DNA from: a virus
Strand: one strand, 5' to 3'
IMG/VR virus record: IMGVR_UViG_3300023084_000004
DNA length: 64,000 nucleotides
Shown here: positions 10,265 to 57,955 of the stretch, piece after piece
Numbering within the stretch: position 1 is the stretch's first letter
Layout of the letters: every line of letters begins with the position of its first letter
Program-made: the position numbers and the translations under genes
Notes under the pieces: model-generated
Database searches by the model: none
What the model saw: only the letters and a program-made list of their open reading frames with translations
Told to the model about the DNA's origin: nothing

Positions 10265-10594
10265 ATGGTAAAATTAGATAAAAAAGGAAAAATTAGAACT
10301 GACGCTTATGTTGGAACATTTGACACTGGTTGTGCTGGTGATATGTTAGAAGTAGAATCAATCAGAACTTTAGTCAAAGGTTTGAATCAAGAGCTTAAAA
10401 ATTCTGGTGCTGTTTGTAAGTACGGTAGAGATTTAAGGTTCAGAGTAGATGTAAAAGGTAGAAAGCCAATTCATAAACCAAGAAAAACTCCAGCTGGAAA
10501 CTATACTGGTTGGACTTGGGGTGGTGACGTCATTGGTGGTCTTTCAAACGCTGGTGCTGTTGATGTCTACATTCACAGAAGGTACACATGGTAA
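10265..10594 (+). CDS. hypothetical protein
   Basis: 109-aa ORF with AGGAAAAGGA RBS. Confidence 0.7.
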   Translation: MVKLDKKGKIRTDAYVGTFDTGCAGDMLEVESIRTLVKGLNQELKNSGAVCKYGRDLRFRVDVKGRKPIHKPRKTPAGNYTGWTWGGDVIGGLSNAGAVDVYIHRRYTW

Positions 10595-10646
10595 GTTGGT
10601 TGTTTGGCTGGTGTGATATCAGCTTTTTAAAAGATAAAGGAATTCT

Positions 10647-10766
10647 ATGAAAATTAAAGTAGAAATCGAGCTTGACACAATAAGAGATAAAGAAGAGCTC
10701 GATGAACTGATAAGACTCATCAATAGCATCAGAAATAAAGATGATGATGATGAATATTATGATTAG
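10647..10766 (+). CDS. 39-aa acidic microprotein (not in track)
   Basis: MKIKVEIELDT...DDDDEYYD, AAGGA RBS. Confidence 0.6.
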   Translation: MKIKVEIELDTIRDKEELDELIRLINSIRNKDDDDEYYD

Positions 10767-12059: not shown

Positions 12060-13211
12060 ATGCGTATTGATAATGAAATCAAACTTGACTATAAAGATGT
12101 TTTGATTCGTCCAAAAAGATCAACACTTGGAAGCAGAAAAGAAGTAGATCTATATCGTGAGTTTAATTATAGGAATTCTGAGCATTATGAAATGAGTATG
12201 AATGCTTTACGACCTGAAATGCCAGATTATCGTGGTATTCCTATTATGGCTTCGAACATGGATGGAGTTGGTACATTTGAAATGGCAGATGTACTTTCGA
12301 AACATGGATTGTTTACCTGTCTTGTAAAAACTTATTCTAAAGAAGATCTAATTAAATTCTTTAATTCAGGAAAAATTCTTCGTACAGAACACTGTGCATA
12401 TAGCATGGGTATTTCAATTGAAGAGCTTACTAAGTTTATTGAAGTATATCAACATGACCGAGAAGCAATTAAGTATGTATGTGTAGATGTTGCCAATGGA
12501 TATAGTAATCGTTTTAGAGACTATATCGCAACACTAAGAGAAAAAGCACCACATATTGTGATTATTGCTGGTAATGTTGTAACTGGTGAAATGACAGAAG
12601 AACTTATACTGAGTGGAGCAGATATTGTTAAAGTTGGAATTGGACCTGGTAGTGTTTGCACTACTCGTATTCAAACTGGTGTGGGTTATCCTCAACTTTC
12701 AGCGGTCATTGAATGCGCTGATGCTGCACATGGTCTTGGTGGACATATTATTGCTGATGGTGGTTGTGTATCACCTGGTGATGTAGCAAAGGCATTTGCC
12801 GCAGGAGCAGATTTTGTAATGTTGGGTGGAATGCTCGCAGGACATGATGAAGGTGGTGGTAATGTAATTACTGAATCTATTATTTCAAACGTGCAGGCGC
12901 CCGCTACGTCCGCGGGGATTGGTAAACGTATTGAGAAACAATTTGTAGAGTTTTATGGTATGAGTTCTAAATCTGCTAATGATAAACACTTTGGTGGTCT
13001 TAAAGACTACAGATCCTCAGAAGGTCGTACAGTGGTGGTACCATATAAAGGACCAGTACTTAATACAGTACAGGACATTCTAGGTGGTTTACGTAGTGCG
13101 TGTACATATGCTGGTGCAGAAAAGCTTAAAAATTTAAGTAAATGTACAACCTTTGTTCGCTGCACTCAAACGCACAATCAAGTTTATGAAAGTTCAACAA
13201 TAGGAGTATAA
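12060..13211 (+). CDS. guaC: GMP reductase
   Basis: MRI..EIKLDYKDVLIRPKRSTL.SR, ASNMDGVG, DVANGYS, KVGIGPGSVCTTR, FYGMSS, YRSSEG. Confidence 0.95.
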   Translation: MRIDNEIKLDYKDVLIRPKRSTLGSRKEVDLYREFNYRNSEHYEMSMNALRPEMPDYRGIPIMASNMDGVGTFEMADVLSKHGLFTCLVKTYSKEDLIKFFNSGKILRTEHCAYSMGISIEELTKFIEVYQHDREAIKYVCVDVANGYSNRFRDYIATLREKAPHIVIIAGNVVTGEMTEELILSGADIVKVGIGPGSVCTTRIQTGVGYPQLSAVIECADAAHGLGGHIIADGGCVSPGDVAKAFAAGADFVMLGGMLAGHDEGGGNVITESIISNVQAPATSAGIGKRIEKQFVEFYGMSSKSANDKHFGGLKDYRSSEGRTVVVPYKGPVLNTVQDILGGLRSACTYAGAEKLKNLSKCTTFVRCTQTHNQVYESSTIGV

Positions 13212-14396: not shown

Positions 14397-14418
14397 AAGG
14401 GACTCGAAAGGGTCCCTT
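14397..14418. terminator. terminator hairpin between convergent operons
   Basis: AAGGGAC-TC-GAAA-GG-GTCCCTT. Confidence 0.75.
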
Positions 14419-14968
14419 ATCTTTTATTACAATGTTTTTTTGCTTTTTCGAGTACTCTAAGATTACTGTGAACAACAACAGAAGTTAACATAAGTGTAGG
14501 CATCAAGATTTCATTTGTGATTGTTTGTCTTTTTTGAATCTCTGGTAATATAGATCCAAATATTGCTGTTTTAAGAAGTACCATTTCATGTATCTCTGGC
14601 ACTCTTGGTAATAAAGGATTCAATTCATATACACAATCGTAAGCGAGGGCTTTTTTGGTAGACCAGATATCTGCAGCTTGAACGAGAAAAAAGATCGTCC
14701 AGGTGGCTAAGCTGGCAGGTTCCTCCTCTGTTATTTTAAATTCAGGAAAAATTAATGTTGATTGAATGTGAGATGGATGTGGTAAATTAACAATTGAGCC
14801 ATTAGGCATTATTCTTGCTTGACCTATAATAACTCTTTGAACATATTCGTCATTGTATGGTGCAGTATAACCTGCTTCAAACATTACTCTTTGTATATCA
14901 GTGTACCCTGCATATACTGGAAAACTTAAAAAAAGTAATCCGATAAGTAATTTATTTAGTAGTCGCAA
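14417..14968 (-). CDS. exported/membrane hypothetical protein (DUF5658-like C-terminus)
   Basis: Signal peptide; AADIWST..A....YELNPLL. Confidence 0.5.
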   Translation of the reverse strand: MRLLNKLLIGLLFLSFPVYAGYTDIQRVMFEAGYTAPYNDEYVQRVIIGQARIMPNGSIVNLPHPSHIQSTLIFPEFKITEEEPASLATWTIFFLVQAADIWSTKKALAYDCVYELNPLLPRVPEIHEMVLLKTAIFGSILPEIQKRQTITNEILMPTLMLTSVVVHSNLRVLEKAKKHCNKR

Positions 14969-16991
14969 TGAAAATCCCGTCCCAATCTTTGGGTAGATCT
15001 TGCGTTTTCATATATTCACAACGCTCTATCCACATGGTATAATATCCAGCCATCTGACCTTCAAAACATTCCATTAAATCATTACATATTTTTATGGCTT
15101 TATCAAAGTTTTGTTTTCTATAATTCATATGCATAGCTTCATGCATCTCAGCCGGTTTAATATATTTATCCTTATTTAAATCTAAAACTGTGTATATCTC
15201 AATGCCTACTGATTTGCCCTTTACAGCAAGATCATCTACTTTCAAAAAGAAAAAGTCATTTCGACATCTTTCAACAGTTGCGCCACCTACTAAAAGCAAA
15301 CAACCATATTCTTTACATTTAGATTCTATTCGTGCTGCTGTTGATACTGCATCTCCAAGAACATCATAACTATGTCGCTCTGTAGAACCCATTTCACCAA
15401 GATATCCGAGACCAGTATTAATACCGGCACCCATACCAATTGGTGGTCTTCCTTCAGCAATAATCTTTTTATTAAATTCTTCTACAGATTTAAGCATGTT
15501 CAATCCAGTTTGAACAGCAGTTTTAGGGTGGTCAGGATCTTCTATAGGTGCGTTGTGGATGTGCATCGACGCATCGCCTATATATTTAATAATCATTCCA
15601 TCAGCGTTAAGGACAGGCTCAGTGATTGAATCCATATATCCATTCATTAATTTCGTTAATCCTTGTACGTCATCTCCAAAGCTTTCACCTAAAGGTGTAA
15701 ATCCTCTTAAATCAGAAAAACAAATACTAATTTCTTTTTTCATTCCCTCTTTAACGAGAGAAGGATTCTCTTGGAGTAAACGAACGACTGTAGGAGAAGC
15801 ATACCCAGCAAATTGTTTTGCTAGTTGACGTTTCTCTAAAAACGTGATAAAATACTTGTTAAAACTTGATTGAGCAAATACTACTAAGGAAGCAAATGAA
15901 CTCATTGTGGCGTCAACGAATAGCAGCGAATCAGTCCATAAATAATATGATATTAATGAAGAGGAAGCGAGCAGAAATAAACTCGTTGTCAATCCAAGAA
16001 TTGTGGGCAAAATATAGACCGCTCCAAGGATACCTAGACTCAGTAAGACCAGAAGAAGCAGCTCGACTATTGGCTGCCAGTCGGGAATCTGTATTTCAAC
16101 TCCTGAAAGGACGGTCTGAACCAGGTGTGCTTGAACTTCGTGAGGATACTTTGCACCCGTTGGGGTTGCGACTGGATTAGCATATCCTTCTGCTGTAATA
16201 CCAAATATTAATACCTTTCCATCTGGTAAAGGATCAAGTATACTTACTTGTTCAAATTCGTTCCAGAAAGCAATTGGTATTTCGGCAAAACTATTTGTTG
16301 TGATAGGATCTTGACGACCCATACGAATCCACTCAACTCCGAGTGGACCTACTTTCATTTGATAACTGGGTTCTCCTGTGAACACTCGTAATGTATCGAG
16401 TGCGAGAGATGGATAGGGATTCCCGGCTGCTCTGACCACGAGTGGTGCTCTACGCACAACTCCTGTTGGTTCATCAGGAACAGCAACGGTGGCACCAACA
16501 CCAAAAGCGTAATCAGCAAGAGGTTGAATAGGGTACAATAATCCTGGAAATTCATAAAGCCAATTTTCATTTTGTTCTCCAAAGGTAGCAACACCAACAA
16601 AGGTGCCAACTCCATCTGATGTTTGTTGAGTAGGAGCAGAAGATAATACAACAGCTTTTTGTGCCATTGCTTCTGCAAGTTGATTATCTCCTCCGAACCT
16701 ATCAGATTCGGAATAGATCATATTTAAGACATAAAGAGAATTAGGAGAATTGTTATTAAGGTACTTAGCAACAATATCCCGAGGCCACGGATATTGGCCT
16801 TCAGCTGCGATAGCTCTTTCGTCAATGTTGACGAGGACAATATCGGTTGATTGTATTTTTTCTTGTTCTGATTGAAGATAGTCATAATATGCATATTCTA
16901 TACTTTGAATAAAGTTTGGATTAGAAATTGATAAGGTTGCAAATCCAGCAATTGTTATTAATACTGTCCACCACTTTGTTAACCATTTCAT
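14952..16991 (-). CDS. CHASE2-domain class III adenylate/guanylate cyclase
   Basis: N-terminal TM, V.IDE..IA..GQYPWPR (CHASE2), 3 TMs, FSDLRGFT, IKYIGDA, GINTG...GEMGS, YDVLGDAVSTAARIE, L.VKGK. Confidence 0.93.
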   Translation of the reverse strand: MKWLTKWWTVLITIAGFATLSISNPNFIQSIEYAYYDYLQSEQEKIQSTDIVLVNIDERAIAAEGQYPWPRDIVAKYLNNNSPNSLYVLNMIYSESDRFGGDNQLAEAMAQKAVVLSSAPTQQTSDGVGTFVGVATFGEQNENWLYEFPGLLYPIQPLADYAFGVGATVAVPDEPTGVVRRAPLVVRAAGNPYPSLALDTLRVFTGEPSYQMKVGPLGVEWIRMGRQDPITTNSFAEIPIAFWNEFEQVSILDPLPDGKVLIFGITAEGYANPVATPTGAKYPHEVQAHLVQTVLSGVEIQIPDWQPIVELLLLVLLSLGILGAVYILPTILGLTTSLFLLASSSLISYYLWTDSLLFVDATMSSFASLVVFAQSSFNKYFITFLEKRQLAKQFAGYASPTVVRLLQENPSLVKEGMKKEISICFSDLRGFTPLGESFGDDVQGLTKLMNGYMDSITEPVLNADGMIIKYIGDASMHIHNAPIEDPDHPKTAVQTGLNMLKSVEEFNKKIIAEGRPPIGMGAGINTGLGYLGEMGSTERHSYDVLGDAVSTAARIESKCKEYGCLLLVGGATVERCRNDFFFLKVDDLAVKGKSVGIEIYTVLDLNKDKYIKPAEMHEAMHMNYRKQNFDKAIKICNDLMECFEGQMAGYYTMWIERCEYMKTQDLPKDWDGIFIATTK

Positions 16992-17739: not shown

Positions 17740-18891
17740 TTATCCACCCTGTCTTATAATTACTGTTGAGTTATTACCGCCATTTAGATCAATGATCCCA
17801 CTATATCCTTCTACTTCTGTATTTACTTTTACTGAAGCATCTACGGCAAATGCTAATTGAATCTTTCCATTTGCCAAACGATAAAAAATTATTTTACCGT
17901 TATCTTCATAAATGTTATATTGAGAATCTGAATTTAAACCAAATCCTGCACCTTTTAATTCTGCGCCCATCGCATTATTTGATACTGCACTATCATCTAA
18001 TGAAGCTGTTGTTTTTACGAGATCATCAATTACATTTAATAAATCAACAAGAAAATCTACATCTAAAAAATCAATATCAAGTTCTGAAAATTCTAATTCG
18101 TCTTCCGCTAATGCATCATATTCTAATTCGTTAAATTCTAAAAAGTCAACATCAAGCAATCCTTGATCATCATTATTTTCATCGTTATATTCTTCTTCTA
18201 ATGCTCTTTTTACTTCAGGAGGTGGAGACACAATGAACATATTATCAATAACATTTGCTGTTATATTTGAAATATTAATCTGTCTTGTTGGCGGATCATC
18301 TAATGTAGAAACCATTGTTGCTGCGTAAGCTTCTTCTAAAGTAATCGTACCTCCTAAATTAGATACTTCAATTGTTCCTGATGGATTACCATATTGATCT
18401 GGTAAAAGTATGACCAGTGATCTTCCAAGCTCATCTATGGTGGTTGTGAAATCTGTTCCGCGTACCGCAATACTTGCAGTAGGTGTTTGTATGTCTATAT
18501 TACTTTTATTTACCATACCCAAACGACCTGATGCAAATCGTGCAGTGCCTAATGCCATACGCATTGCCATTTTGGATTTACTTGGATCAGGATCGTAGTA
18601 TACACTATCAATGTATACTTTGGTATTTTCGGTAAGACTGAGTTCTGCTTTATCTAAGAATTCGATAAGCATTCGGCCATTCTCAGTTTCGGCCGTATCA
18701 TTAATGACAATGTCAGGTACTTGTTGGTCTGACACCTCAAGAGTTGCACCTGCTTCTCTTGTAATAGAACCAGTTCCTGTGTGTTCAACAATATTGCCAA
18801 TTGGGTCTGCTGCAGACAAACCCAATGGCAACAAAGTGAAAACACTAAGTATCGTTAGACGAATCTTTTTGATTAATCTGGATAGTAGCAT
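17740..18891 (-). CDS. FecR-domain exported protein
   Basis: Signal peptide; T.NGR..I.F.D...L.L.ENT.V.ID, G..RF.SG, I.TPTA.I.VRGT.F; acidic D/E-L-F repeats in the C-terminal half; start could be 18903. Confidence 0.82.
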   Translation of the reverse strand: MLLSRLIKKIRLTILSVFTLLPLGLSAADPIGNIVEHTGTGSITREAGATLEVSDQQVPDIVINDTAETENGRMLIEFLDKAELSLTENTKVYIDSVYYDPDPSKSKMAMRMALGTARFASGRLGMVNKSNIDIQTPTASIAVRGTDFTTTIDELGRSLVILLPDQYGNPSGTIEVSNLGGTITLEEAYAATMVSTLDDPPTRQINISNITANVIDNMFIVSPPPEVKRALEEEYNDENNDDQGLLDVDFLEFNELEYDALAEDELEFSELDIDFLDVDFLVDLLNVIDDLVKTTASLDDSAVSNNAMGAELKGAGFGLNSDSQYNIYEDNGKIIFYRLANGKIQLAFAVDASVKVNTEVEGYSGIIDLNGGNNSTVIIRQGG

Positions 18892-19576
18892 TGTCAGAAT
18901 CAATGTCTAAAGTTATAATCCCATTACAGGTTGATACACCTGTAGGACATGTTCCACTTAATTGATTGATATCTATATCGGCACTATCTCCAACGTGAGT
19001 CATATTGATTTCGTGCTCAGCACCATCTTTTTGCATTGTGTTAATGTTATTTGAATCTCCAGTAATATCGAAGTTCCAAATCGCATCATCAACATCAATG
19101 TCAATATCAAATACGTTAGTTGAACCGAGAACAGATAAATCAAAATCCAATCTCTCGGCACTTGCGTTATAACCTAGATCGAAATCCATAGTGTTGCTAT
19201 CACCAGTTATATCAGACAAAATGTTTGCTGAATCTGATGAACCAACATAACCAATGTTCCAATCCCAACTATTACTATCTCCAGTCCAAGTAAGATCTAT
19301 TGTTGAACTGTCTAATGTAATAGGACCAAAAAGCAAATTGCTATTACCAATTTGATTAATGTCAATATTCAAAGTTGCACCAATAATAGACATTGCTGAA
19401 ACTGATCCTGAAGAAGCGTTATCTCCTCCAACTTTGTTTCCATATCCATATTGGTCAATATATAAAGTCAATGTATCACCTTGTTGGTCAATATTGATTT
19501 CGTTATCGTCCGTTGCTTGCGCAAATGCGAAAGTAGAAACAAAAACTAAACTTAGGCCTAATAGTTTTTTAATCAT
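18845..19576 (-). CDS. curlin-like repeat protein (CsgA/B-like)
   Basis: Signal peptide; DNEINIDQQG, LYIDQYG.GN, ININQIGNSN, repeated I.GDSN...D beta-solenoid units. Confidence 0.65.
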   Translation of the reverse strand: MIKKLLGLSLVFVSTFAFAQATDDNEINIDQQGDTLTLYIDQYGYGNKVGGDNASSGSVSAMSIIGATLNIDINQIGNSNLLFGPITLDSSTIDLTWTGDSNSWDWNIGYVGSSDSANILSDITGDSNTMDFDLGYNASAERLDFDLSVLGSTNVFDIDIDVDDAIWNFDITGDSNNINTMQKDGAEHEINMTHVGDSADIDINQLSGTCPTGVSTCNGIITLDIDSDNATIQINQKDSSNDT

Positions 19577-20487
19577 TCTTCTTCCCCGTTATTTTGTTTG
19601 TTTATTTTCCAGAAACCACGACGATCTCCTTGATAAACCATTTCCAATACGGCAGCTTCAATTGCTGTTCGTACTGCATACGTCACACTTTCATTATTTC
19701 CTACACCGTCTTCATATTCAATCAACTGCGTTCCCTGCTCGATGAATCTAAAAACATCGCCTCCGGCACCATAACTTAAAATTGTTTTTTTCGTTTGTAC
19801 ATTAAGTAATACTTCACCAGTTAAAACTGATACTGCTCTTAATGAAATAGTAACTTGATCTTGTCTATATTGACGAGTAATACCTAATCCTAGCGTCCTT
19901 GCTCCGATACCGCCCGTTCTTAAGTTACTATCATATCCAATAATACCGCCTTCAATTATCATTCCTGCGAATAAAAGTGGTCCAAGATTTGGAGCATCTT
20001 CTCCAGTTATCTTTGCGGCTTCTTCTCGACCACTACGAATAATTTGTCTTTCTCTAACAAGAGCATCAATCCCTTGTCTTTCAGCAACTCTAAACCATTT
20101 ACCATCTCCTGCAGTTTTGAGTGCATCAATTAATAATTCTGTTCCACCTTGTGTTACCGCAGTGGAGAAACTTTGTCCTGTGACTGAATCTTTACGTTGT
20201 CCTGTTTTATCTAAAAAGTTATATACAGCAACCACCGGCATTTGTTCGGCTGGCGGTAAATTTAATAATTCTATATAAGATGGTAATCTTACAACTTCAG
20301 GATTATCTGCGCATATTAATTGTTGTGCATAAAACTTTCTTACGCCTGTATAAACGTCTCTTCCAAATCCTTCTGAATATTTACCTTTACCATATTCACA
20401 TTGACCAGGATTTTCATTCCATTGCGGAATAGATGCACAACCTGTAATAAGAAGTAATAGACTAACCGCCGTCAGGATTCGAGTCAT
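19573..20487 (-). CDS. csgG: curli secretion channel lipoprotein CsgG
   Basis: Lipobox ITGC after ATG 20487; VAVY.F.DKTGQRK, FSTAVTQG, WF.V.ER, RERQIIR, GGIIGYD, LR.VSV.TGEVL. Confidence 0.92.
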   Translation of the reverse strand: MTRILTAVSLLLLITGCASIPQWNENPGQCEYGKGKYSEGFGRDVYTGVRKFYAQQLICADNPEVVRLPSYIELLNLPPAEQMPVVAVYNFLDKTGQRKDSVTGQSFSTAVTQGGTELLIDALKTAGDGKWFRVAERQGIDALVRERQIIRSGREEAAKITGEDAPNLGPLLFAGMIIEGGIIGYDSNLRTGGIGARTLGLGITRQYRQDQVTISLRAVSVLTGEVLLNVQTKKTILSYGAGGDVFRFIEQGTQLIEYEDGVGNNESVTYAVRTAIEAAVLEMVYQGDRRGFWKINKQNNGEEE

Positions 20488-20992
20488 CAGTTCCTCCGCC
20501 GAAGTTACCACTACCAATAGGTATTTCAATCACGGTCGTTGTCCCATCTTCCCCGACAATCGTCATCTTAATATATTCAGTACCATCTGTGTTTGTAATT
20601 ACTTCATATGTTACTGTTGATCCTTCCAATACAAAGGATCCATACCTTACAGGATTATCATTAGAGAACATATTGTCTACTAACTGTTTTGCTAATTGAG
20701 CATAAATCCTGCTTTCAAGATTTCTTATAAACTTTGCTAAAATTGTATTATCTGCTTCTCGTTCTGCTGCCTTTCTTGCAGCTTCCATTGCATCTTCGAT
20801 TTGTTTCTTTCTACTAAATTCTTGGTTCTCAATAGTTAAATAATGAGCACCAGTTCCAATTCCGCTGAATGATGGATTTTTAAATTTTTGTACTATAGGT
20901 TCACCATATACTTTTCCTGTTGCAAGTAAAAGATATGTAATAAGTATTACCCAACCAATAGCAAGTAAACCTCTATCATCAGTTTTTTTCAT
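20462..20992 (-). CDS. csgF: curli assembly protein CsgF-like
   Basis: Signal peptide then F.NPSF.G...G.H.L.IENQE, F..NLESRIY.QL..QL; directly upstream of csgG. Confidence 0.8.
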   Translation of the reverse strand: MKKTDDRGLLAIGWVILITYLLLATGKVYGEPIVQKFKNPSFSGIGTGAHYLTIENQEFSRKKQIEDAMEAARKAAEREADNTILAKFIRNLESRIYAQLAKQLVDNMFSNDNPVRYGSFVLEGSTVTYEVITNTDGTEYIKMTIVGEDGTTTVIEIPIGSGNFGGGTDDSNPDGG

Positions 20993-21801: not shown

Positions 21802-21809
21802 TATTTATA
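21802..21809 (-). promoter_or_regulatory. T4-type late promoter heading the curli/cyclase operon
   Basis: TATAAATA on minus strand 50 nt upstream of ATG 21752. Confidence 0.75.
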
Positions 21810-47588: not shown

Positions 47589-50500
47589 CTATTTGTCTCC
47601 TCGTAAAAATTTTACTTCTTCTCTCAATTCATCTAATTCTGATTTTAAGTCTTTAACTGCTTGTATTAAGAATGGTGTAATCTTGTCATAGTTAACTGTG
47701 AGGAAGTCTTTAAGCTCCTCACCATCAACCATAATTTTGTCTTTGCCGCCGTTACCAGCTTTATTTATAACTACAGAATTAGGTATTACATCTTGTGTTT
47801 CTTGAGCAATAACAGCGACTTCTTCCATTCCACCTTCAATAACACCAGCTGTTACTTGTTCGGCTTCTTTCTTCCAATTAAATCGACTTGGTTTCAGTTT
47901 CATGATCGTATCAAGACCTTCACCTCTTGGAAGTTCTTGAATATTTTCTTTCAATCTTCTATCTGACCAATAAGCAACAACGTTACCTGGTGTATATACT
48001 GAACCGTTTAGATATAATCTCCAACCAAACGATGTACTATAGAAACCATGCTCTGTATAGTTCATCATCAAGCAGATGTTGTTATCAAACTGCATACCAC
48101 CCCAACCGTTACGAGAACCTTGAACTCTCCAAGAACCGTAAGATGCGTTGTTAGGATAGAAGTGAGCGCCGTTAATACCAGAGTAAATACCGTGATAGCC
48201 AGTTAAGTTGTTCCAACGATACTGGTAAGAGTAGTTCGAACCACCGTTGAACTGCCATACCAAGCTTGCCATGTTATAATCAGTATAGAAACGCATACCT
48301 TCATATGATGGGTTAGCACCAAATTTCAAACCAGTATGGAATGCGATACGTAAGTCAGGATATGGATAGCTCCAACCACCGCCTTCACGATATACACGAT
48401 AAGCAGTTGATTGGTTGTTAGCGAACGCTACACCATATTCGTGGTTAGTTGAAACATCATAGTTATTACGTAGATAGAATGTTCCAAGACCCCAGAAACG
48501 AGACCAGGTATTCATATTAGCATAATAACTACTATCATGGTCATAGAATACAGAACCATAAACTCTATTATAGAAGTATGCGATAGCGTTTCCACCTTCA
48601 CGACCAATATATGCTACGTTCTGTGAATTACCAGAACCATTGTCGTGAATACGTACATAAGAGTTTCCGTTATTATTATTTGAGTCAAGTCTTAGGTTAA
48701 TGTCATTAAACGAGTTAAGTGACATTGAATCTGTAAACGAACCATTAATATCCGTCGAGGAAAGTCCATGATAGTAGTAATAATCATAGTTAGCATTCCA
48801 GTCGAATGATATGTAAGCCATCTTATGGAATTCAGATGACCATGTTCCATATCCTTGCAAGCGACCTTTATTAGTATCACTACCACCATAAGCCGTATTT
48901 GTTCTTGTTACATTAAATCTTGAATTACCATTTGGGTCAGCATAATATGCAGTGTTATTACGATCGTAGAAGATATATGCGCGAGCATCATTCATGTATG
49001 TAACACGGTATAGCTCCATGTGGCTATTTCCGTAGAATATACGAACCTGCCAGTTACCAGAACTATTAAGAAGACCGAAACCGTTTCCGTCCCAATATCC
49101 TGCATAACCTCTTAAATCTGATTCGTAGTTTCTATATGCTACTAGACCACCATAACTATAGCCTCCACCTGCATACTTGTAGTATCCATTATTGGAGTAG
49201 AAATGCATTCCGGTAGCTTGGTTATATAATCCATTACCAGAGTTTCTGTTGCGGAACCAACCATAAGTGTAATGTTCATTAGCATCAGTCGCATTTAATC
49301 TTGAGGTACCATTTGGATCGCAATAATAACCAGTATTATCAGAATCGTAGTAAATGGATGCGTAGAATGAACCAGAATATTCATTAACACCATGCATCGC
49401 GACTTTCTTCCAGCTACTAAAGCCGGACCAAGTATTACGGAACCACAATCCTGAGATAGGACCACCAGCCAGCTGCCAACCGTATCTTGCTGAACCATTA
49501 GTGTAGTGATAGGCTTGAACACCGACCCAGTGTGATGTACCTGAAGGCTGGTTAGGTGGATTACTCCATGAATCAAAGAAGCCTGAACCCCAGTCGGCAA
49601 CCGTGTTCATATTTACCCGGCTCCAACCGACTGAACCAGTCCAGTAGTTTGTATCTCCTGTTATACGAGGTCTAGCTGCATAGTATTCTTTACTTGATCT
49701 TGTTTGACCAGAAAGACCCATGAATGCCATTGTTAGGTTATTAACACCACGGAATCTTGTACTGTTATCTGAAGCACCATTGAAATAATAACCAGTGTCA
49801 TTGGTATCATAGAAGATAGGCGCTCTCATAGAACCTTGAGCTTGCAGATAACCATAATTATATTGGTGATAACTACCATTCCAATAATACATCCAAGTTC
49901 TAGAGTTATCATGAATACCGATATTATCTCCACCAGTACTCATTAATACCCAACGTGAACCTAATCCATAACCTCTCCAACCGTTTCTACCGCTACCGTA
50001 TGTAGCTACGTTACCGTATGAGTTTCCTTCAGATTCAGGAGCCCATAAACCATGTCCATAAGATTGGAAATAAAGACCGGTGTTACCTTGTGGTCTAAAC
50101 CAATCATTAGCATAAACTGTTCTTAATTGTGTAGAACCATTCGGGTCAACATAATAGCCAGTATTATTCCTATCATAGATAATCGGTGTATCAAGACGAC
50201 TAGCAATTAATACTTGACCGTTACCGCGAATAATTTGATTCCAAGAACCTCCGAATCCACCATCACGGAAGATGAAGTCCTCTCCACCTGATGTAGCAAA
50301 TTCAAAGTGAGAATCATTAGTTTCAGTTGCACGAATATATCCACGTAAGGAACCTGAACTTGTGTAGAAGTAAATAGGCGCGCCACCTTGCATTCTAAGA
50401 TCTGCATTTAGATACAATCTAGAGAATTGTGAATTGCCATTAGGATCTGCGTAATAGCCAGCATCGTTAGCATCATAGTAAATTGTTGCATACATTGCGC

Positions 50501-53500
50501 CGGAACCAATATTTTGGTTATACACGGCTGTGGTCTTCATAGTAATGCCTACGCCTTTACTATAACTTGGCAATGTTGAGTTTGAAATACTTGTAACTAA
50601 GTTTCTATCATCGCCATTTGCATTTCTTACGTGAACAGTGAAGGAGTTCCAATAAGATACTCTTGGCCACCAGAAACATAATACTCCACCATTTTCAAAT
50701 GCATATAGTGTTCCAAATCCTGCTTTACCAAAATGTTGACCAGAATAGTTGATAATAGTATTATTGTACAAATAACCTTGTGCAATAAAACTAAATGGTG
50801 GATCACCAGAATAAGATTTACCTGTTGCTTCAAGTACGAATGAAGCACCGTTAGTTGCTGTCGCAGGAATACTTGTTCTTACAATTGTACCATTTGCAAA
50901 ATCAGAACCTGAGTGTGCGAATGTTCTTGTGTACCAACCTCTTTGTCTTACATCATAGAGTTCTGATAGATTGCTTGGCTCAACATAGTATCCAGTAGAA
51001 TTTCTATCTCTAAATATGTCAGCTCTTACGTCGTTTTCAGCATATACGTGTCTATCATTTTGTAGCCACATAATAGCAACATTATCACCAGATGACCAAC
51101 CTCTACCAATACCGTAGTGTGGGTTATTTGATGGTGGATTTGCTCTATATCCAAAACTCAACATCGTTGCATTTGTACCAGGAATACCAATTACCCAATG
51201 TTTTAGGTTACCTGAAGATGCGTTAGCCGAATCATAGGCTGTAAATCTTAATGTAGGACCGTGATTACTGTTATTAATCTCAGATGACATAAGGTTCAAC
51301 TGAGGATATTGTCCTTTAATTGTTAAATCAGGTCTACGTGTTTCTTGAAGTACGCCATTATATAAATTAGACTCATCACCAATATGTAATCTGTATATAA
51401 GTCGTTGTTCATAGAATCTTGTTGTTCCAGCTGGATTAGCGTAGTAGTTTGTATCATTATAGTCGTAATAAATTGGTGAACGCATCTGATTAGGAGCATA
51501 ACCATAACCAGCACGAGTACCTAATTGCTCAACATTAGCAGCATAAAGTTGTACATAGTGATCGTTGGTGTTGCTACCTGAATTTGTAGAACGAATTAAG
51601 TTGTATGCACCATTAGAGCCACCGCGTATTTGAATACCACGATAAGTATTCCAAAGTATTCCATCAAATCCTGAGTTAGCTGCACCTCTAGCATTTGGTC
51701 CACCATAGTAGTCATTCCACAATACGTGGTTAGTATCAGTGCCGGCATTAAACCAAATACCATTGTGTGTATAATTACGCGCAAGTCTTAAACCGTAATT
51801 TCTTAATTCTAAATTATGTAGAATAGAATTTGAAGCCGGGTTTACATAATAGTTTGTATCATTTCTATCATAGAAAATAGATGCACGAACATCGTTTAAG
51901 ATTGAAATACCATTTGGATTTAAATAGTAATTAGCATCATTTAAATCATAATAAATTGGAGCACGCATATGTCTTGTTGCTCTGAATACTTCAGTTGCTA
52001 CTTCAGCATTATATTCTACTTGATCTCCCCAGAATACAAATGTTGCACCTGTACCATCTGGGTTAGCATCAGATACTCTAATTTCAGCATCAAAGCTTGA
52101 GTTAATAAAACCAATTCTATTACCAGCAAGAGTCAGTGTATTCATGTGTGACTGAGATGCTGGATTTACATAGTAATTAGTATCGTTACTATCGTAGAAG
52201 ATTGGAGCACGGAAACTTGTTGGTGAGTACACATAGTTAAAATATGTGATTAAGTTATCACGCGTGTCGTAAGCACCGTATGTTCTCTTGAATCTATGAC
52301 GAATAGATTCATTACCATCGTAATCGTCTTCAGATTGAAGGATGAGAGCGCCAGTGTTTGTTCCACTTGGTGATTCGCCGTAGATCTTCCAAGCATCGTC
52401 ATTACCCATTGTCTGACCAATATAATAGTCAGGTTGTGTTGCAACACTAGCGTATGCGGTACCGACTGGGTTTTGTGGTAATGTTAGTCTTGCAAAATTA
52501 GATGTTCCTGCAGGATCAGCATAAAAGTTCGTATCATCTGTATCTACAAATCTTCTTGCAAACATTTCGTCTGCAGTAATATCACCTGAGAATACTGTAT
52601 CACCATCTTCATCAACATAGAATCTATCGCCTTTACCATTAAAGTGAATAATAAATGCAGATTTACCATTGACATTATCGTGGACTAACCAAGGATAGTT
52701 AGCATCAGCACCACTGTTTCTGAAACCAATTAAGTATCTGTTATTATGATAGACTCCTAATGGATATGAAGTAGAACCTGTTAGAGCACCTTGGTTTCCT
52801 AATTCTAAAGTATTAAATCTTGAACGAGAAGCAAAGTCTCCAAAATATCCTGTATTATCTAAATCATAATAAATTGGTGAGCGTACATCTTGTCTCGAAT
52901 CAATTGAACCAAAGTGATGTCTTGTATTCGTAACAGTAGCACCAGTAACATTTCCAAGAGTTGCTCTTACTTGTTGACCAGTTAAGATTTCAATAGAGTT
53001 TGCTGGTGTTGTTAATTGTTTGCCTGAACCATCTTCTAATGTGATACCACTTACTGCAACCCAATGCCATCTTACATATGAATCCCAAGTGATGCTGTCC
53101 ATTTGCATCCAAATTCGGTTGTTATTATCAACACGAACTTTTGGTGTACCATTATTGAGTGGGCCAGTTGTATGATGGTCAATAGAAATTGAACTACTAT
53201 TCCATGAACTGATTACAATTCTACCAATAACATTACCACTATAGTTTACATCGTCTTTAGCGTAATATTCTAAGAAACCTTTTGCACCACCATTATTTGT
53301 AACACCAACTGGAATCCAGTAATATTGTGTATTAGGTGTTTGTGATGTGCTATAACTATATGTACTTTGTTGATACCAATAAGATTCAACTGGGTTATTT
53401 TGTAAATAACCACCTTGTTCGAACGTACCATTAACAATTAAGTTTTGAATATTTGAAGTATTGTTAGGATCTACATAGAATGCTGTATTATTTAAGTCAT

Positions 53501-56500
53501 AGAATATTGGAGTACGTAATTGGTTATTTGCTCTAAAGTATCCGTTGTCTGTTCTTGCTTGTTCACCACCATTATACATTAATCTCATGTATGAGTTGCG
53601 ATCTGCGTACCAGATCCATTCATTATCTACATCATTGTAAACACCTACACGATTTGCGCCATCATGCATGAATACAAAACGGTCATCAATACTGAATCCT
53701 GAGTATCCATTTCTTGCGCCACCGCTTACTGCAAATGAACCATAATCTCCTGTAGGCTCTCTTAATACAACAGCGTTACCATCAAGTTTGATAGTATCCA
53801 TTCTAGATTCTGAATTTGGATCTACAAAATAATTAGTATTATTTGAATCATAGAAAATTGGTGCGCGGAATGAGCCTGAAGCAACAACAAAGCTACCAGA
53901 CCTTGGACCTTTCATTGCCCATTGACCGGTTGCGCTACCATCATGGCCCCACATACCCCATTCGCCGTTATTGATTTGAGTTAAACCTGTCCAAGTATTA
54001 CCATCAGAACCAACAATACTTGTAGCACCACCACGATATCCAAGTGACATACCATAAGCAGACATTGAACCTGTTGAACTGTTATGTTCTGTGAAGAATA
54101 TTCTTGATGAACCTTCACCTGAAGTATCTGCATTACCTTCGATAGATAACCATCTACCTTTTTGAGCTTCTGCGTTTGATGCTGTTCCATTTCCAGGTAA
54201 ACCAAATGATAGATTTCCACCAAAGAAACCTGCATTACTTCCGGCATTACCTGTTGCGTTTGGATCTAAATAATATCTATTGTCGTCTTGATCATAGTAG
54301 ATAGAAGCATACATTCCACCGCCGCCACCAGTAATCTGAATTGGTCTGTTAAATTGGAATGTATTTGTTCCAGTTGATGTAGATAGAATCTCGAATCTTA
54401 AAGAATGATCTGTGGTATCAGTTTCGTCTTGCCAATATTGAATGTAACCTATACCATCTGTAATATACTGGCGAATACGTTCTGATGAGCTACGGCCAAC
54501 ATTTAATTCACCAGTGGTTGCACCACTGTAAACATTTAAGTATTTAAGTACAGAAGTTCCATCACCATCAATAAAGAAAGTATTATCATCAGAGTCATAA
54601 TAACGAGGTGCATAAACATTTCCTTGGAAATCAGCGGAATCATTGTCAATGTTTAATCTTTGAACTCCATTTGTCCAAACTCTGAATGTATCATTAGCTT
54701 CAAAACCAAAATAAGTGTTTGTATCTCCACGATGACGAATATAGTCATCAATGTCGATAGTATTCATTTGTGAATCACCAGCTGGGTCTACATAATAATT
54801 TGTATTATCAACGTCATAATAAGTTGAAGCGTAGAAATCGCCGTTAGATGAAAAATCTTTATTGTTTCGAATCTTAACTGTAGTGGTGTTGTCCATGTAG
54901 AAACCACCACCTGAACCAAATCCTAGTTCATCACCTTTTAAGAATGTAGCAGTTCCATTTCCAACAACAAAAGCATCGTCTAAACTAGCTAATTGAACAG
55001 ATCCACCAACATGTAATTTATTGTCTGTTGTTGCGCCTATAAGAGGTGTATTATCATTTGCTGTATATGTAGGACCAGTAGAGTTATTGACCATAACATT
55101 AGCGCTATCGTCAACAATTAATGCTTCAGTATAACCTGATGTCCAGAATCCCCAGTTAGTACTTGCTTTTAGAACTTGATAAAGATTACCAGAAGCATCA
55201 CCTCTAAATTGTCCGCCAGCAGTTCCGTCTGCATTAAACTGAAGATACACATTAGATGCATTTGTTGGATTATTTCCAATATCAATTCTATTTAAATTGA
55301 GTAATGCAGCTCCACCATTAGATCCACTAATTTGAATATTTGAATTTGTACCTGCAGCATTTGGCTGAATCGTGATACCACCATCACCTGTGTTATCATC
55401 TGTTCTATCTGCATCAGATACATTACCAATTAAAATTTTACCAGCAGCAGTTAATGATGTTGTCGTACTTGAACCATCAAAATAATAATCATTATTATCT
55501 GAATCATAATAGATTCCAGCATACATTGTAGGAGCTGTAATAGAAAGAGTACTTGTGATTGCAGAAGTATTAGCTGTAAATCTTATGGTTCCGCCGGTTG
55601 AAATTACAAATTCATCATTATTCGGAAATCCGATGTATGTATCAGTATCACCATTGTGAGCAATATAATCATCAAGACCAATATCATTCATTACCGAAGT
55701 GCCGGCAAAATTACCATAATAAGCTGTATTATTTGAATCGTAGAAAATAGGTGAACGCATCTGATCATTTGCTAATACATAAGTATTATTAACAAGTAAT
55801 CTTTGAGAACCACCAGTTACTACTCTAAAACTATCTGCTGCATTAAACTGTAAATAAGTATCTGCATCACCGTCGTGAATAATTTCACCAACTAATGAAA
55901 TATCATTTAATCTTGAGCTGCTAGCTGGATCGACATAATAAGTAGCATTACCACTGTCGTAATATCTACCTGCATATAAGTTCGGGAAGAAACCGTCGAC
56001 TGCACCAGTAATAAATGTTCCGTTAATTTCTAAACGCTGAGTACCATCAGTAAAGAATTGAATATTATCGTTTGCGTTAAATCCGAAATAAGTATTTGTA
56101 TCACCATTATGGAAGATGTAATCATCGATTCCTATGGTGTTCATTACTGAAGTACCAGCTGGATCTACTTCATATGTTGGGTCATCGGCATCTTGGAATT
56201 TTGAAACTTGTAATGTTCTATACGTTCTTAAAATTGTGTTATTAGCAAATAATGCTTCAGTACCACCAGTGTAGATAACAGCTTCATCGGCATTAGGGAA
56301 TCCGATATAGGTATTTAAATCTGAACGATGCCTAATAAAGTTATCAATATCAATACCAGACATCTGAGAAGTAGCATGGAAATCACCATAATAATCGCGA
56401 TTATTTCGATCATAATATCTCGGTGCTTCCATTTCACTAAGAGCAGTAACAGTATTTGCAGTAATATCAGTAGCAACTATATTACCAATATATACGCCAC

Positions 56501-57902
56501 TATTATTTGCAGTTAATCTTGTTGCTCCACCGGTGTTAAGCTTTATTGTATCATCAGTAAAATTAACTTTTGTATCTGTATCATTATTATGGAAAAGATC
56601 ATCATCAATTCCTATATTATTCATTACAGAAGTATCAGCAGGATTTACATAATAGTTATTATTATCTGCATCTAAAAATCTTTGTCCAATTACGTCTGTA
56701 CCTGCAGTAACTGTTGTTCCTGCAGCGACTGTTGTTCCTGCACTTACTGAACCCGCTGTTGCTGAAATATTACCAGTTGTCGCGGTAATATTTTCATCTG
56801 CTACAAGATGTCTATCTGTTCTTAAATCTCTTCCGATATATACGTCTCTATTTTGGTCTACTTTTAACGACCAACTAGAATTTGAATCTAAGAATCCAGC
56901 ATCGCCATTATTAGAATAGATAACACCATCTGCGCCTGTTCCTGCAAGAGTAATTTGTGCAGGACCTGCATTATCTCCAACAGTAAGATTACCTTCAATT
57001 GTTATATTACCTGCAGCAATATCATCAACATCTGATCTTAAGAATTGGTATCCTTCTAAACCATCAACCGTATCTGCATCAAATCCATTATTAGCACCTT
57101 CATCGGCTGTTGTAATAATACGACCTAAGTCGGTTCCAGCTGAGTTGAGTTTAAACCAATCATTTGTTTCATCCCAAAGAACTCCAGAATTTGCTGAAGA
57201 TCCACGGTTAACTTCCCAACCTGCATCTTGTGTAGGTGCACCAGAATGATTTGCATTAAGAGTAAGAATATTGTCCGATAAAAGAATTGTTTCGGTATCT
57301 ACATAAGTTGTATTACCTGAAACTGTAAGATCACCATCAATTGTTAAATTTTGTTGAATGGTATAACTACCAGCCATAATGTCATCGACATCAGCACGAA
57401 CAAATTGAGAAGCTTCTAAACCATCAACTGTGTCTGCATCAAAACCATTACCAGGACCCTCATCGGCCGTGGTAATAATTCTGTTTCCATCAATATCTGT
57501 TGTTGATAAACCAGTAAAGTGATTTCCTGTTGAATCAATATTTAAACGGTCACTACCATTATATTGAATAACAACACCTGGTGTACTATCATAGAAGATA
57601 ATACCATTATTTTGTTGAGTGTTAACGATTGAATAATCGCCGGTGCCAATATTTTTAACTTGAAGAGCATCAGAATCACCACGGAATGTGGCTACGATTG
57701 TAGAAGAACCAGCACCTAAGAAATTATGAACATCGAGAGTGGCAGACGACGCGGTATTACTAGATATACTAGTTTCACCTGATAAATTTGTTGTTCCTGT
57801 AACTTGAAGTTGATCAACACCATTATCGGTAGTACTACCAATAACAGCATTTTCAGGAGTCAAGAGTCCATTCTTGACTATAAATTTTTTGTCATTTGCC
57901 AT
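47589..57902 (-). CDS. giant tail fibre/adhesin (about 3437 aa) with C-terminal peptidase S74 chaperone
   Basis: MANDKKF.VKNG start after GGAG; about 24 YYD..N..YY.DP repeats; SDRRLKENI...L.P..F.W..IAQE...V.Y.K..P.LI.A.K.L. Confidence 0.88.
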   Translation of the reverse strand: MANDKKFIVKNGLLTPENAVIGSTTDNGVDQLQVTGTTNLSGETSISSNTASSATLDVHNFLGAGSSTIVATFRGDSDALQVKNIGTGDYSIVNTQQNNGIIFYDSTPGVVIQYNGSDRLNIDSTGNHFTGLSTTDIDGNRIITTADEGPGNGFDADTVDGLEASQFVRADVDDIMAGSYTIQQNLTIDGDLTVSGNTTYVDTETILLSDNILTLNANHSGAPTQDAGWEVNRGSSANSGVLWDETNDWFKLNSAGTDLGRIITTADEGANNGFDADTVDGLEGYQFLRSDVDDIAAGNITIEGNLTVGDNAGPAQITLAGTGADGVIYSNNGDAGFLDSNSSWSLKVDQNRDVYIGRDLRTDRHLVADENITATTGNISATAGSVSAGTTVAAGTTVTAGTDVIGQRFLDADNNNYYVNPADTSVMNNIGIDDDLFHNNDTDTKVNFTDDTIKLNTGGATRLTANNSGVYIGNIVATDITANTVTALSEMEAPRYYDRNNRDYYGDFHATSQMSGIDIDNFIRHRSDLNTYIGFPNADEAVIYTGGTEALFANNTILRTYRTLQVSKFQDADDPTYEVDPAGTSVMNTIGIDDYIFHNGDTNTYFGFNANDNIQFFTDGTQRLEINGTFITGAVDGFFPNLYAGRYYDSGNATYYVDPASSSRLNDISLVGEIIHDGDADTYLQFNAADSFRVVTGGSQRLLVNNTYVLANDQMRSPIFYDSNNTAYYGNFAGTSVMNDIGLDDYIAHNGDTDTYIGFPNNDEFVISTGGTIRFTANTSAITSTLSITAPTMYAGIYYDSDNNDYYFDGSSTTTSLTAAGKILIGNVSDADRTDDNTGDGGITIQPNAAGTNSNIQISGSNGGAALLNLNRIDIGNNPTNASNVYLQFNADGTAGGQFRGDASGNLYQVLKASTNWGFWTSGYTEALIVDDSANVMVNNSTGPTYTANDNTPLIGATTDNKLHVGGSVQLASLDDAFVVGNGTATFLKGDELGFGSGGGFYMDNTTTVKIRNNKDFSSNGDFYASTYYDVDNTNYYVDPAGDSQMNTIDIDDYIRHRGDTNTYFGFEANDTFRVWTNGVQRLNIDNDSADFQGNVYAPRYYDSDDNTFFIDGDGTSVLKYLNVYSGATTGELNVGRSSSERIRQYITDGIGYIQYWQDETDTTDHSLRFEILSTSTGTNTFQFNRPIQITGGGGGMYASIYYDQDDNRYYLDPNATGNAGSNAGFFGGNLSFGLPGNGTASNAEAQKGRWLSIEGNADTSGEGSSRIFFTEHNSSTGSMSAYGMSLGYRGGATSIVGSDGNTWTGLTQINNGEWGMWGHDGSATGQWAMKGPRSGSFVVASGSFRAPIFYDSNNTNYFVDPNSESRMDTIKLDGNAVVLREPTGDYGSFAVSGGARNGYSGFSIDDRFVFMHDGANRVGVYNDVDNEWIWYADRNSYMRLMYNGGEQARTDNGYFRANNQLRTPIFYDLNNTAFYVDPNNTSNIQNLIVNGTFEQGGYLQNNPVESYWYQQSTYSYSTSQTPNTQYYWIPVGVTNNGGAKGFLEYYAKDDVNYSGNVIGRIVISSWNSSSISIDHHTTGPLNNGTPKVRVDNNNRIWMQMDSITWDSYVRWHWVAVSGITLEDGSGKQLTTPANSIEILTGQQVRATLGNVTGATVTNTRHHFGSIDSRQDVRSPIYYDLDNTGYFGDFASRSRFNTLELGNQGALTGSTSYPLGVYHNNRYLIGFRNSGADANYPWLVHDNVNGKSAFIIHFNGKGDRFYVDEDGDTVFSGDITADEMFARRFVDTDDTNFYADPAGTSNFARLTLPQNPVGTAYASVATQPDYYIGQTMGNDDAWKIYGESPSGTNTGALILQSEDDYDGNESIRHRFKRTYGAYDTRDNLITYFNYVYSPTSFRAPIFYDSNDTNYYVNPASQSHMNTLTLAGNRIGFINSSFDAEIRVSDANPDGTGATFVFWGDQVEYNAEVATEVFRATRHMRAPIYYDLNDANYYLNPNGISILNDVRASIFYDRNDTNYYVNPASNSILHNLELRNYGLRLARNYTHNGIWFNAGTDTNHVLWNDYYGGPNARGAANSGFDGILWNTYRGIQIRGGSNGAYNLIRSTNSGSNTNDHYVQLYAANVEQLGTRAGYGYAPNQMRSPIYYDYNDTNYYANPAGTTRFYEQRLIYRLHIGDESNLYNGVLQETRRPDLTIKGQYPQLNLMSSEINNSNHGPTLRFTAYDSANASSGNLKHWVIGIPGTNATMLSFGYRANPPSNNPHYGIGRGWSSGDNVAIMWLQNDRHVYAENDVRADIFRDRNSTGYYVEPSNLSELYDVRQRGWYTRTFAHSGSDFANGTIVRTSIPATATNGASFVLEATGKSYSGDPPFSFIAQGYLYNNTIINYSGQHFGKAGFGTLYAFENGGVLCFWWPRVSYWNSFTVHVRNANGDDRNLVTSISNSTLPSYSKGVGITMKTTAVYNQNIGSGAMYATIYYDANDAGYYADPNGNSQFSRLYLNADLRMQGGAPIYFYTSSGSLRGYIRATETNDSHFEFATSGGEDFIFRDGGFGGSWNQIIRGNGQVLIASRLDTPIIYDRNNTGYYVDPNGSTQLRTVYANDWFRPQGNTGLYFQSYGHGLWAPESEGNSYGNVATYGSGRNGWRGYGLGSRWVLMSTGGDNIGIHDNSRTWMYYWNGSYHQYNYGYLQAQGSMRAPIFYDTNDTGYYFNGASDNSTRFRGVNNLTMAFMGLSGQTRSSKEYYAARPRITGDTNYWTGSVGWSRVNMNTVADWGSGFFDSWSNPPNQPSGTSHWVGVQAYHYTNGSARYGWQLAGGPISGLWFRNTWSGFSSWKKVAMHGVNEYSGSFYASIYYDSDNTGYYCDPNGTSRLNATDANEHYTYGWFRNRNSGNGLYNQATGMHFYSNNGYYKYAGGGYSYGGLVAYRNYESDLRGYAGYWDGNGFGLLNSSGNWQVRIFYGNSHMELYRVTYMNDARAYIFYDRNNTAYYADPNGNSRFNVTRTNTAYGGSDTNKGRLQGYGTWSSEFHKMAYISFDWNANYDYYYYHGLSSTDINGSFTDSMSLNSFNDINLRLDSNNNNGNSYVRIHDNGSGNSQNVAYIGREGGNAIAYFYNRVYGSVFYDHDSSYYANMNTWSRFWGLGTFYLRNNYDVSTNHEYGVAFANNQSTAYRVYREGGGWSYPYPDLRIAFHTGLKFGANPSYEGMRFYTDYNMASLVWQFNGGSNYSYQYRWNNLTGYHGIYSGINGAHFYPNNASYGSWRVQGSRNGWGGMQFDNNICLMMNYTEHGFYSTSFGWRLYLNGSVYTPGNVVAYWSDRRLKENIQELPRGEGLDTIMKLKPSRFNWKKEAEQVTAGVIEGGMEEVAVIAQETQDVIPNSVVINKAGNGGKDKIMVDGEELKDFLTVNYDKITPFLIQAVKDLKSELDELREEVKFLRGDK

Positions 57903-57955
57903 TCGGTTCACTCTCCCCAGATAGGCGATTTAAATTGTAATTACTTTTCTATTTA

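Follow-up and report, generated by a model that had tools for sequence, protein, structure and literature searches.

A predicted receptor-type adenylate cyclase with a remodelled catalytic pocket in the curli/FecR module of a T4-like marine phage

The viral type VIII secretion system (T8SS) region published for pelagiphages, which carries curli genes, regularly includes genes for a FecR protein and an adenylate cyclase, and the viral cyclases are nearest to those of Alphaproteobacteria (Wittmers et al. 2022, PMC9599517). Viral Curli proteins and their affiliated FecR were found at all 65 GOV2.0 stations in the same study (PMC9599517). On the bacterial side, Sinorhizobium meliloti has a FecR-domain gene, smc02177, in its cyaD1 locus, and removal of CHASE2 renders the synthesis of cyclic AMP (cAMP) by CyaD1 constitutive (PMC5498481). 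The 2020 and 2022 descriptions of the curli genes of Methylophilales phage Melnitz and Pelagibacter phage HTVC008M leave the cyclase unmentioned, and its catalytic residues are discussed neither in those papers nor in PMC9599517. Here, a gene of this kind is described that encodes a CHASE2/class III cyclase of 679 amino acids (aa) in 64,000 nucleotides of DNA, the whole stretch analysed and hereafter the window, from IMG/VR virus record IMGVR_UViG_3300023084_000004. The gene and its curli/FecR/cyclase module were already known; what is new is a remodelling of seven positions, with a single origin, strict conservation and two new invariant histidines, that is not described in the accessible literature on the module.

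The cyclase and its catalytic residues

Pfam recognises two families in the protein: CHASE2 covers aa 19-319 (E 2.4e-30; 106 bits, cut-off 26.3) and Guanylate_cyc (PF00211) covers aa 417-600 (E 3e-16; 60 bits, cut-off 21.9). An AlphaFold2 model built from 49 homologues, with a mean predicted local distance difference test (pLDDT) score of 90.8, shows CHASE2 as a beta-rich fold with helices on either side, lying between an N-terminal membrane helix and three subsequent helices as in other CHASE2 proteins. These helices span residues 306-327, 330-355 and 362-394 in the model, the last running into the linker, and hydropathy peaks at 311-329 and 355-373. The charge distribution, with Lys and Arg at the N-terminus and following the final helix, is consistent with an N-in protein whose CHASE2 domain faces the periplasm and whose cyclase domain is cytoplasmic. 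The catalytic domain of the model superimposes on Pseudomonas aeruginosa CyaB (3r5g) with a VIA-align Z of 26.5 and a root-mean-square deviation of 1.7 Å over 190 residues, and with a Foldseek template modelling score of 0.90; the whole-model VIA-align search was saturated by this domain and the CHASE2 fold was barely compared with solved structures. The 76-aa C-terminal extension matches no Pfam family. Its tail motif, DWDG(V/I)(F/Y)xATxK, is conserved in cyclases from Alphaproteobacteria through to phages, but the ~610-aa enzymes of the type found in Pelagibacter phage HTVC008M have lost it.

Catalytic residues were placed by alignment to the solved cyclases CyaB and Cya2 (2w01). D427 (FSD) and D473 (IGD) align with the metal-binding Asp residues of both enzymes, K469 (IKY) and D543 (YDV) form a base-specifying pair of the adenine type, R539 is the phosphate-binding Arg and R554 the transition-state Arg. 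The protein has the sequence, fold, metal-binding Asp, base-specifying pair and Arg/Lys residues of class III (PF00211) and lacks the transition-state Asn, S550 standing at the exact Asn position of CyaB and Cya2 (GDAVSTAAR here, GREVNLASR in CyaB). The motif GD[AS]VSTAAR is present in 120/120 close homologues (at least 77% identity), so Ser550 is not a sequencing accident. An earlier, sequence-only reading had listed both metal-binding Asp, the ATP-specifying Lys and Asp and the catalytic Arg and had noticed Ser in place of the transition-state Asn; the alignment bears out the first observation, and alignment and close homologues together the second. Its description of a full-length receptor-type cyclase agrees with the two Pfam domains and with 679 aa uninterrupted by stops.

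The second base-specifying position of class IIIb cyclases is Ser or Thr, a signature from which Asp543 departs. The protein is nested among Ser/Thr-bearing CHASE2 cyclases, and phylogeny places it as a descendant of class IIIb that has left the signature of that class. The sequence-only reading had treated Asp543 as usual and had pointed to the Ser. The Ser change is real, but Asp543 is derived too and the Asn-to-Ser replacement is one of seven coupled swaps.

Seven coupled swaps in one phage branch

The extent of the change was visible in an alignment of 153 sequences, comprising 150 representatives of 50%-identity clusters and the proteins of the window, of HTVC008M and of the Methylophilales phage Melnitz. 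The base-specifying and transition-state positions are occupied by Ser/Thr and Asn in ~140 of these sequences and by Asp and Ser in 11, and mixed pairs (Asp/Asn or Ser/Ser) occur in none of the 153. Column-by-column comparison of the two groups yields seven swaps, S435G, D468I, A477H, F478I/V, W479H, S/T543D and N550S, at positions that are 83-100% conserved in the ~140 other relatives. A scan for this signature took in ~300 sequences (the 150 cluster representatives, 80 loci each from viruses and bacteria, 5 from metagenomes, and the two phage reference records) and found two states only: the canonical S/A/T, D, AFW-like, S/T + N and the alternative G, I/L, H-x-H, D + S. No intermediate signature was found among them.

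In a tree of the linker and catalytic region, from which both trait columns had been removed, all Asp/Ser sequences fall on one branch (Shimodaira-Hasegawa-like approximate likelihood ratio test 99) whose sister is a Thr/Asn phage group. The tree indicates that the Asp/Ser state arose once, and it places the switch within the phage module lineage, since the Asp/Ser group, its Thr/Asn sister and the HTVC008M-type Ser/Asn group share the curli/FecR module. The best 80 bacterial genome matches are mostly from Alphaproteobacteria at 28-31% identity and all have the canonical Ser/Thr + Asn pocket; the Asp/Ser state was found in 0 of these 80 with a scan pattern that would admit H-I-H. As far as these sequences go, the seven-position remodelling was seen only on viral or metagenomic DNA.

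Conservation was assessed in 56 distinct members of the Asp/Ser clade, which diverge down to 50% identity in the catalytic domain. D427, K469, D473, D543, S550, R554, K591 and K593 are invariant in all 56, as are G435, H477 and H479, while the phosphate-binding R539 is replaced by Lys in 4/56. Within the clade, conservation is highest in the cyclase domain (73%, against 37% for CHASE2). Furthermore, 31 loci use an AGY codon for Ser550 and 22 a TCN codon; because a move between AGY and TCN needs two nucleotide changes, selection, and not only recent shared ancestry, has kept the Ser. With the catalytic residues this strongly constrained, the earlier forecast of an adenylyl cyclase with altered catalysis or regulation was a fair one.

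The model offers a possible structural reading of the swaps. Strands 466-471 and 474-479 are joined by a Gly472-Asp473 turn, and the hairpin register derived from the model secondary structure pairs 469/476, 468/477, 467/478 and 466/479. By this register, position 478 (Phe to Ile) lies on the face of the adenine-binding Lys469, and positions 468, 477 and 479 lie together as a patch on the opposite face. In the beta-alpha-beta-beta-alpha-beta fold the opposite face packs on helices that include alpha-1, the helix reported to move upon activation in the CyaC and mammalian cyclase literature. Helix alpha-1 would bear position 435, and its N-terminus (F431, T432) would hold the triphosphate. The swaps may thus comprise two linked changes, one in the pocket (478, 543, 550) and one a repacking under alpha-1 (435, 468, 477, 479), with H477 and H479 probably outside the pocket.

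Three further contigs are of note. A 3.9-kb metagenome contig, L005, encodes the Asp/Ser member that diverges most (P0151, 715 aa, signature G/L/HIH/DS) and has a short FecR gene after and not before the cyclase; this contig is too short to call phage or bacterial. On a deep-branching phage contig of the Asp/Ser clade, L003, an open reading frame (ORF) two genes 3' of the cyclase (10348-10749) has a weak Pfam match to Tad3 (PF25185). The best 'bacterial' match, at 35% identity over aa 2-601 and of HTVC008M-like length, comes from a 2.2-kb contig (L008, CAZHAN010000173.1) of a 'Rhizobiaceae' metagenome-assembled genome, and this contig may be phage DNA binned into that genome.

The curli/FecR/cyclase operon and its phage context

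The cyclase is firmly linked to the curli/FecR module in viruses. Among viral loci with enough upstream flank, FecR is present in 48/48 and CsgG in 47/48, and the window has the same co-linear csgF, csgG, curlin-repeat, FecR, second curlin-like and cyclase genes on phage DNA. The sequence-only reading had presented the cyclase on its own; it is indeed a receptor cyclase, but it is also the last large gene of the published module (PMC9599517). Of the best 80 bacterial loci, 30 have a FecR-like gene within 10 kb, a count made by single-sequence tblastn that undercounts, and 0/80 have CsgG or CsgF near the cyclase. Two IMG/VR viral loci (L105 and L138) have a rearranged module, in which the curli and FecR genes do not precede the cyclase but follow it at a distance of 4.6-10 kb.

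In the FecR protein, a signal peptide precedes two beta domains that are connected by an acidic linker modelled with low confidence. Of the two, the N-terminal one is similar to the periplasmic signalling domain of PupR (6ovk), an anti-sigma regulator of the FecR family. A complex prediction for CHASE2 (aa 24-305) with mature FecR scored 0.20 against a mark of 0.32, which speaks neither for nor against binding.

The DNA is part of a T4-like marine myophage. The window genes include a T4-type gp23 capsid protein, portal, sheath, large terminase, RNase H and PhoH, in keeping with the earlier attribution of the cyclase to a phage, and the guanine-cytosine content of the window is 31-40%. The source is a 137-kb IMG/VR virus record that is 64% complete by CheckV. 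A megablast search of phage records with the operon gave zero matches, and its relatives show only at the protein level. Elsewhere in the window, an IMPDH/GMP-reductase family gene lies near the operon (12060-13211, plus strand) and a 3440-aa ORF lies in the structural region (47589-57911, minus strand).

The operon runs on the minus strand, in the order late-type motif, three small ORFs, csgF, csgG, curlin-repeat gene, FecR gene, second curlin-like gene, cyclase, small membrane protein and hairpin (Table 1). The stop codon of the second curlin-like gene overlaps the cyclase ATG, and in Melnitz, HTVC008M and most viral loci a homologue of that gene is found at the same place. The 98- and 91-aa leader ORFs are alike, each consisting of one membrane helix and a coiled coil, and flank the 70-aa ORF; these two stand before csgF, at the place of the 'histidine kinase' genes in the module of Wittmers et al. 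2022, and none of the three leader ORFs matches a Pfam or NCBIfam family. At the other end of the operon, homologues of the 183-aa membrane protein lie directly 3' of the cyclase in 12/80 viral loci; they follow the cyclase in several HTVC008M-type viral loci but in few Asp/Ser ones.

The motif TATAAATA occurs 8 times in the window against 10 expected by chance, i.e. it is not enriched, and 7/8 sites are on the minus strand. Besides the site before the operon, the other six minus-strand sites (29763, 31177, 35286, 43221, 47169 and 47762) are directly upstream of minus-strand ORF starts in the structural-gene region. In T4 late promoters, such motifs stand just upstream of ORF starts.

Table 1. 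Coordinates of the cyclase gene, its domains and substituted codons, and the other elements of the operon in the window.
Feature	Position	Strand	Basis or remark
GC-rich terminator-like hairpin, operon end, between convergent genes	14397..14418	.	Sequence
183-aa membrane protein, weak DUF5658 match	14417..14968	-	TTG start overlaps cyclase gene end
CHASE2/class III cyclase gene, 679 aa	14952..16991	-	ORF without stops, Pfam, AlphaFold2 model
C-terminal three-helix extension and tail, aa 604-679, end DWDGIFIATTK	14955..15182	-	Model helices 607-625, 629-639, 648-662
Class III cyclase catalytic domain, aa 417-600	15192..15743	-	Pfam, structural matches
Ser550 codon TCA, replaces transition-state Asn	15342..15344	-	Alignment
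Asp543 codon, base-specifying position	15363..15365	-	Ser or Thr in all relatives outside clade
His477-Ile478-His479 codons, strand beta-3	15555..15563	-	Ala-Phe-Trp in canonical relatives
Three membrane helices and helical linker to cyclase domain, aa 306-394	15810..16076	-	Model, hydropathy
CHASE2 (PF05226) periplasmic sensor domain, aa 19-319, between membrane helices TM1 (aa 7-23) and TM2	16035..16937	-	Pfam; model
Second curlin-like secreted repeat protein, 246 aa	16991..17731	-	Translation with signal peptide
FecR-domain periplasmic protein with signal peptide	17740..18891	-	Pfam FecR E 2e-10, signal-peptide-like N-terminus
Curlin-repeat protein	18845..19576	-	Pfam Curlin_rpt E 1e-3 (just below cut-off), weak NCBIfam CsgA/CsgB matches
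CsgG outer-membrane channel	19573..20529	-	Pfam E 1.1e-53
CsgF	20462..20992	-	Pfam E 6e-13
Three small leader ORFs, 98 + 70 + 91 aa	20979..21752	-	Translation
TATAAATA, T4-type late-promoter motif	21802..21809	-	~50 nt upstream of the operon's first ORF

Proposed function and relation to known cyclases

The reading preferred here, held with some confidence but well short of certainty, is that the protein is an enzymatically active cAMP synthase that senses the envelope and whose catalysis or regulation has been re-tuned. It would be an inner-membrane receptor-type adenylate cyclase in which the periplasmic CHASE2 domain controls a cytoplasmic class III domain, and this catalytic domain most likely dimerises and converts ATP to cAMP. 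A phage would have taken the CHASE2-cyclase/FecR sensor pair from an alphaproteobacterium, and the pair would then have been joined to curli secretion genes. The curli operon, including the cyclase, is probably expressed late, together with the secreted FecR-type protein, and the late-promoter motif before the operon counts in favour of this. During infection the cyclase/FecR pair would turn a periplasmic or envelope cue of the cell into cytoplasmic cAMP; because FecR proteins accompany such cyclases in Alphaproteobacteria too, the pair probably reports the state of the envelope. The catalytic pocket would have been rebuilt in one step in this phage branch, with turnover or regulation unlike that of the Asn-bearing relatives. 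There is a precedent for activity without the Asn, as Mycobacterium avium Ma1120, with Ala at this position, is active and its Ala-to-Asn mutant is inactive (PMC4215837).

Several points weigh against an active cAMP synthase of this kind. Cyclase activity is a prediction for every member of the module, and the roles suggested for positions 435, 468, 477 and 479 derive from hairpin register and fold topology. All seven swaps go back to one event, which makes their coupling a single observation. An Asn-to-Ser change in mammalian type II C2 reportedly cut kcat by one to two orders of magnitude. The Asn is described as essential in the mammalian cyclase by Yan et al. 1997, as cited in PMC4215837. 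Finally, no domain of a phage-encoded cAMP receptor or phosphodiesterase was found: cNMP_binding, GAF_2 and Metallophos gave no match in this IMG/VR record (64% complete), nor did cNMP_binding in Melnitz, HTVC008M and three related records. The earlier suggestion that a phage receptor cyclase could reprogram CRP regulons is a conjecture, for which a search of the literature on Pelagibacter and cAMP/Crp gave nothing useful.

A more radical interpretation, which is unlikely but deserves to be stated, is that Gly435/Ile468/His477/His479/Asp543/Ser550 mark a phage-only subclass of class III whose chemistry or control differs in kind and which abundant ocean phages use for envelope signalling in SAR11- or OM43-like cells. 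Such a subclass may have another product, a His-bound metal or a pH switch acting via alpha-1, or it may have lost the response to bicarbonate that is typical of class IIIb.

Distinctly unlikely is the proposal that product or chemistry has changed, the enzyme making a cyclic nucleotide other than 3',5'-cAMP or using a different metal or a His-dependent step. In its favour, seven normally fixed positions have shifted together and then stayed fixed, and they include a wider site at Ile478, the Asp543/Ser550 pair and two new invariant His residues that are unusual for the family; class III folds that make cyclic UMP or cyclic CMP are also among the structural neighbours (7r65, Z 20.6; 8jsf, Z 19.2). 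However, Lys469 and Asp543 form the classical adenine-specifying pair, and by the class IIIa rule a Lys/Asp pair specifies adenine. The hairpin register puts H477 and H479 on the face opposite the substrate Lys, probably outside the pocket, and the scores of models for the Pycsar cyclase PycC are not above the generic Pfam score.

Compensated repacking is improbable as well. It supposes that an ancestral phage fixed one change, neutral or slightly deleterious, and that the other swaps compensated for it, leaving an enzyme that behaves like its Asn-bearing relatives. The single origin speaks for this, and so does the module context, which Asp/Ser, Thr/Asn and Ser/Asn enzymes have in common, with no change of partner accompanying the switch. 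Against it, one branch altered seven positions that ~140 relatives keep at 83-100%, and zero reversions are found in a clade diverging to 50% identity. The least probable alternative is a pseudo-cyclase that binds ATP, or serves the curli module as sensor or membrane scaffold, but no longer cyclises. For it speak the loss of the transition-state Asn and the existence of inactive class III homologues that bind ATP (one, 6yii, is a structural neighbour with Z 16.1). However, the metal Asp and the Arg usually drift once catalysis is lost, whereas here the metal-, phosphate- and base-contacting residues are kept in 56 diverged sequences with the catalytic domain the most conserved, and in Ma1120 a natural enzyme does without the Asn.

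Phages with the curli/FecR/cyclase module are widespread in the surface ocean, and thousands of close homologues of the cyclase were found by search. If the enzyme is an active cAMP synthase, phages of bacteria that rank among Earth's most abundant and most regulator-poor would bring their own envelope-to-cytoplasm second-messenger pathway into the cell. The rebuilt pocket would be a natural and strictly conserved alternative to the Asn/Arg transition-state pair, and the Asp/Ser, Thr/Asn and Ser/Asn enzymes make up a comparison set within the same gene context.

Among known systems, Pycsar PycC has the common class III fold in its favour, and PADLOC PycC models match the protein at E 2e-15. 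Assignment to the PycC family was rejected, given that the PADLOC match is no stronger than the generic Pfam match, that the Lys/Asp pair is of the purine type and that the protein is a CHASE2 receptor in a curli/FecR phage locus, a non-defence context with no effector gene. The earlier suggestion that the cyclase interferes with cyclic-nucleotide defence signalling finds zero support here, the PycC matches reflecting the shared cyclase fold only. Ma1120 is likewise a natural class III cyclase without the transition-state Asn, but it is soluble and actinobacterial, has Ala and not Ser, and belongs to an unrelated lineage (Z 17.5). The class IIIb enzyme CyaB of P. aeruginosa is the best structural match, at 30% identity and with metal-binding Asp, Lys and Arg aligned; it differs in having Thr + Asn where Asp543 + Ser550 stand here and Val-Phe-Phe in place of His-Ile-His.

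S. meliloti CyaD1, CyaD2 and CyaK share the CHASE2 and class III architecture and represent the alphaproteobacterial lineage nearest to the phage enzymes (PMC9599517), but they are bacterial, unlinked to curli genes and only ~28-31% identical. Closer in context is HTVC008M (AGE60353), which has the same gene order and a 32% identical cyclase, albeit one of the canonical Ser/Asn type without the C-terminal extension. Melnitz (QZI94833) has the same gene order and a cyclase that is 50% identical and bears the same seven-residue signature, and with its OM43 host it provides a culturable system carrying this signature.

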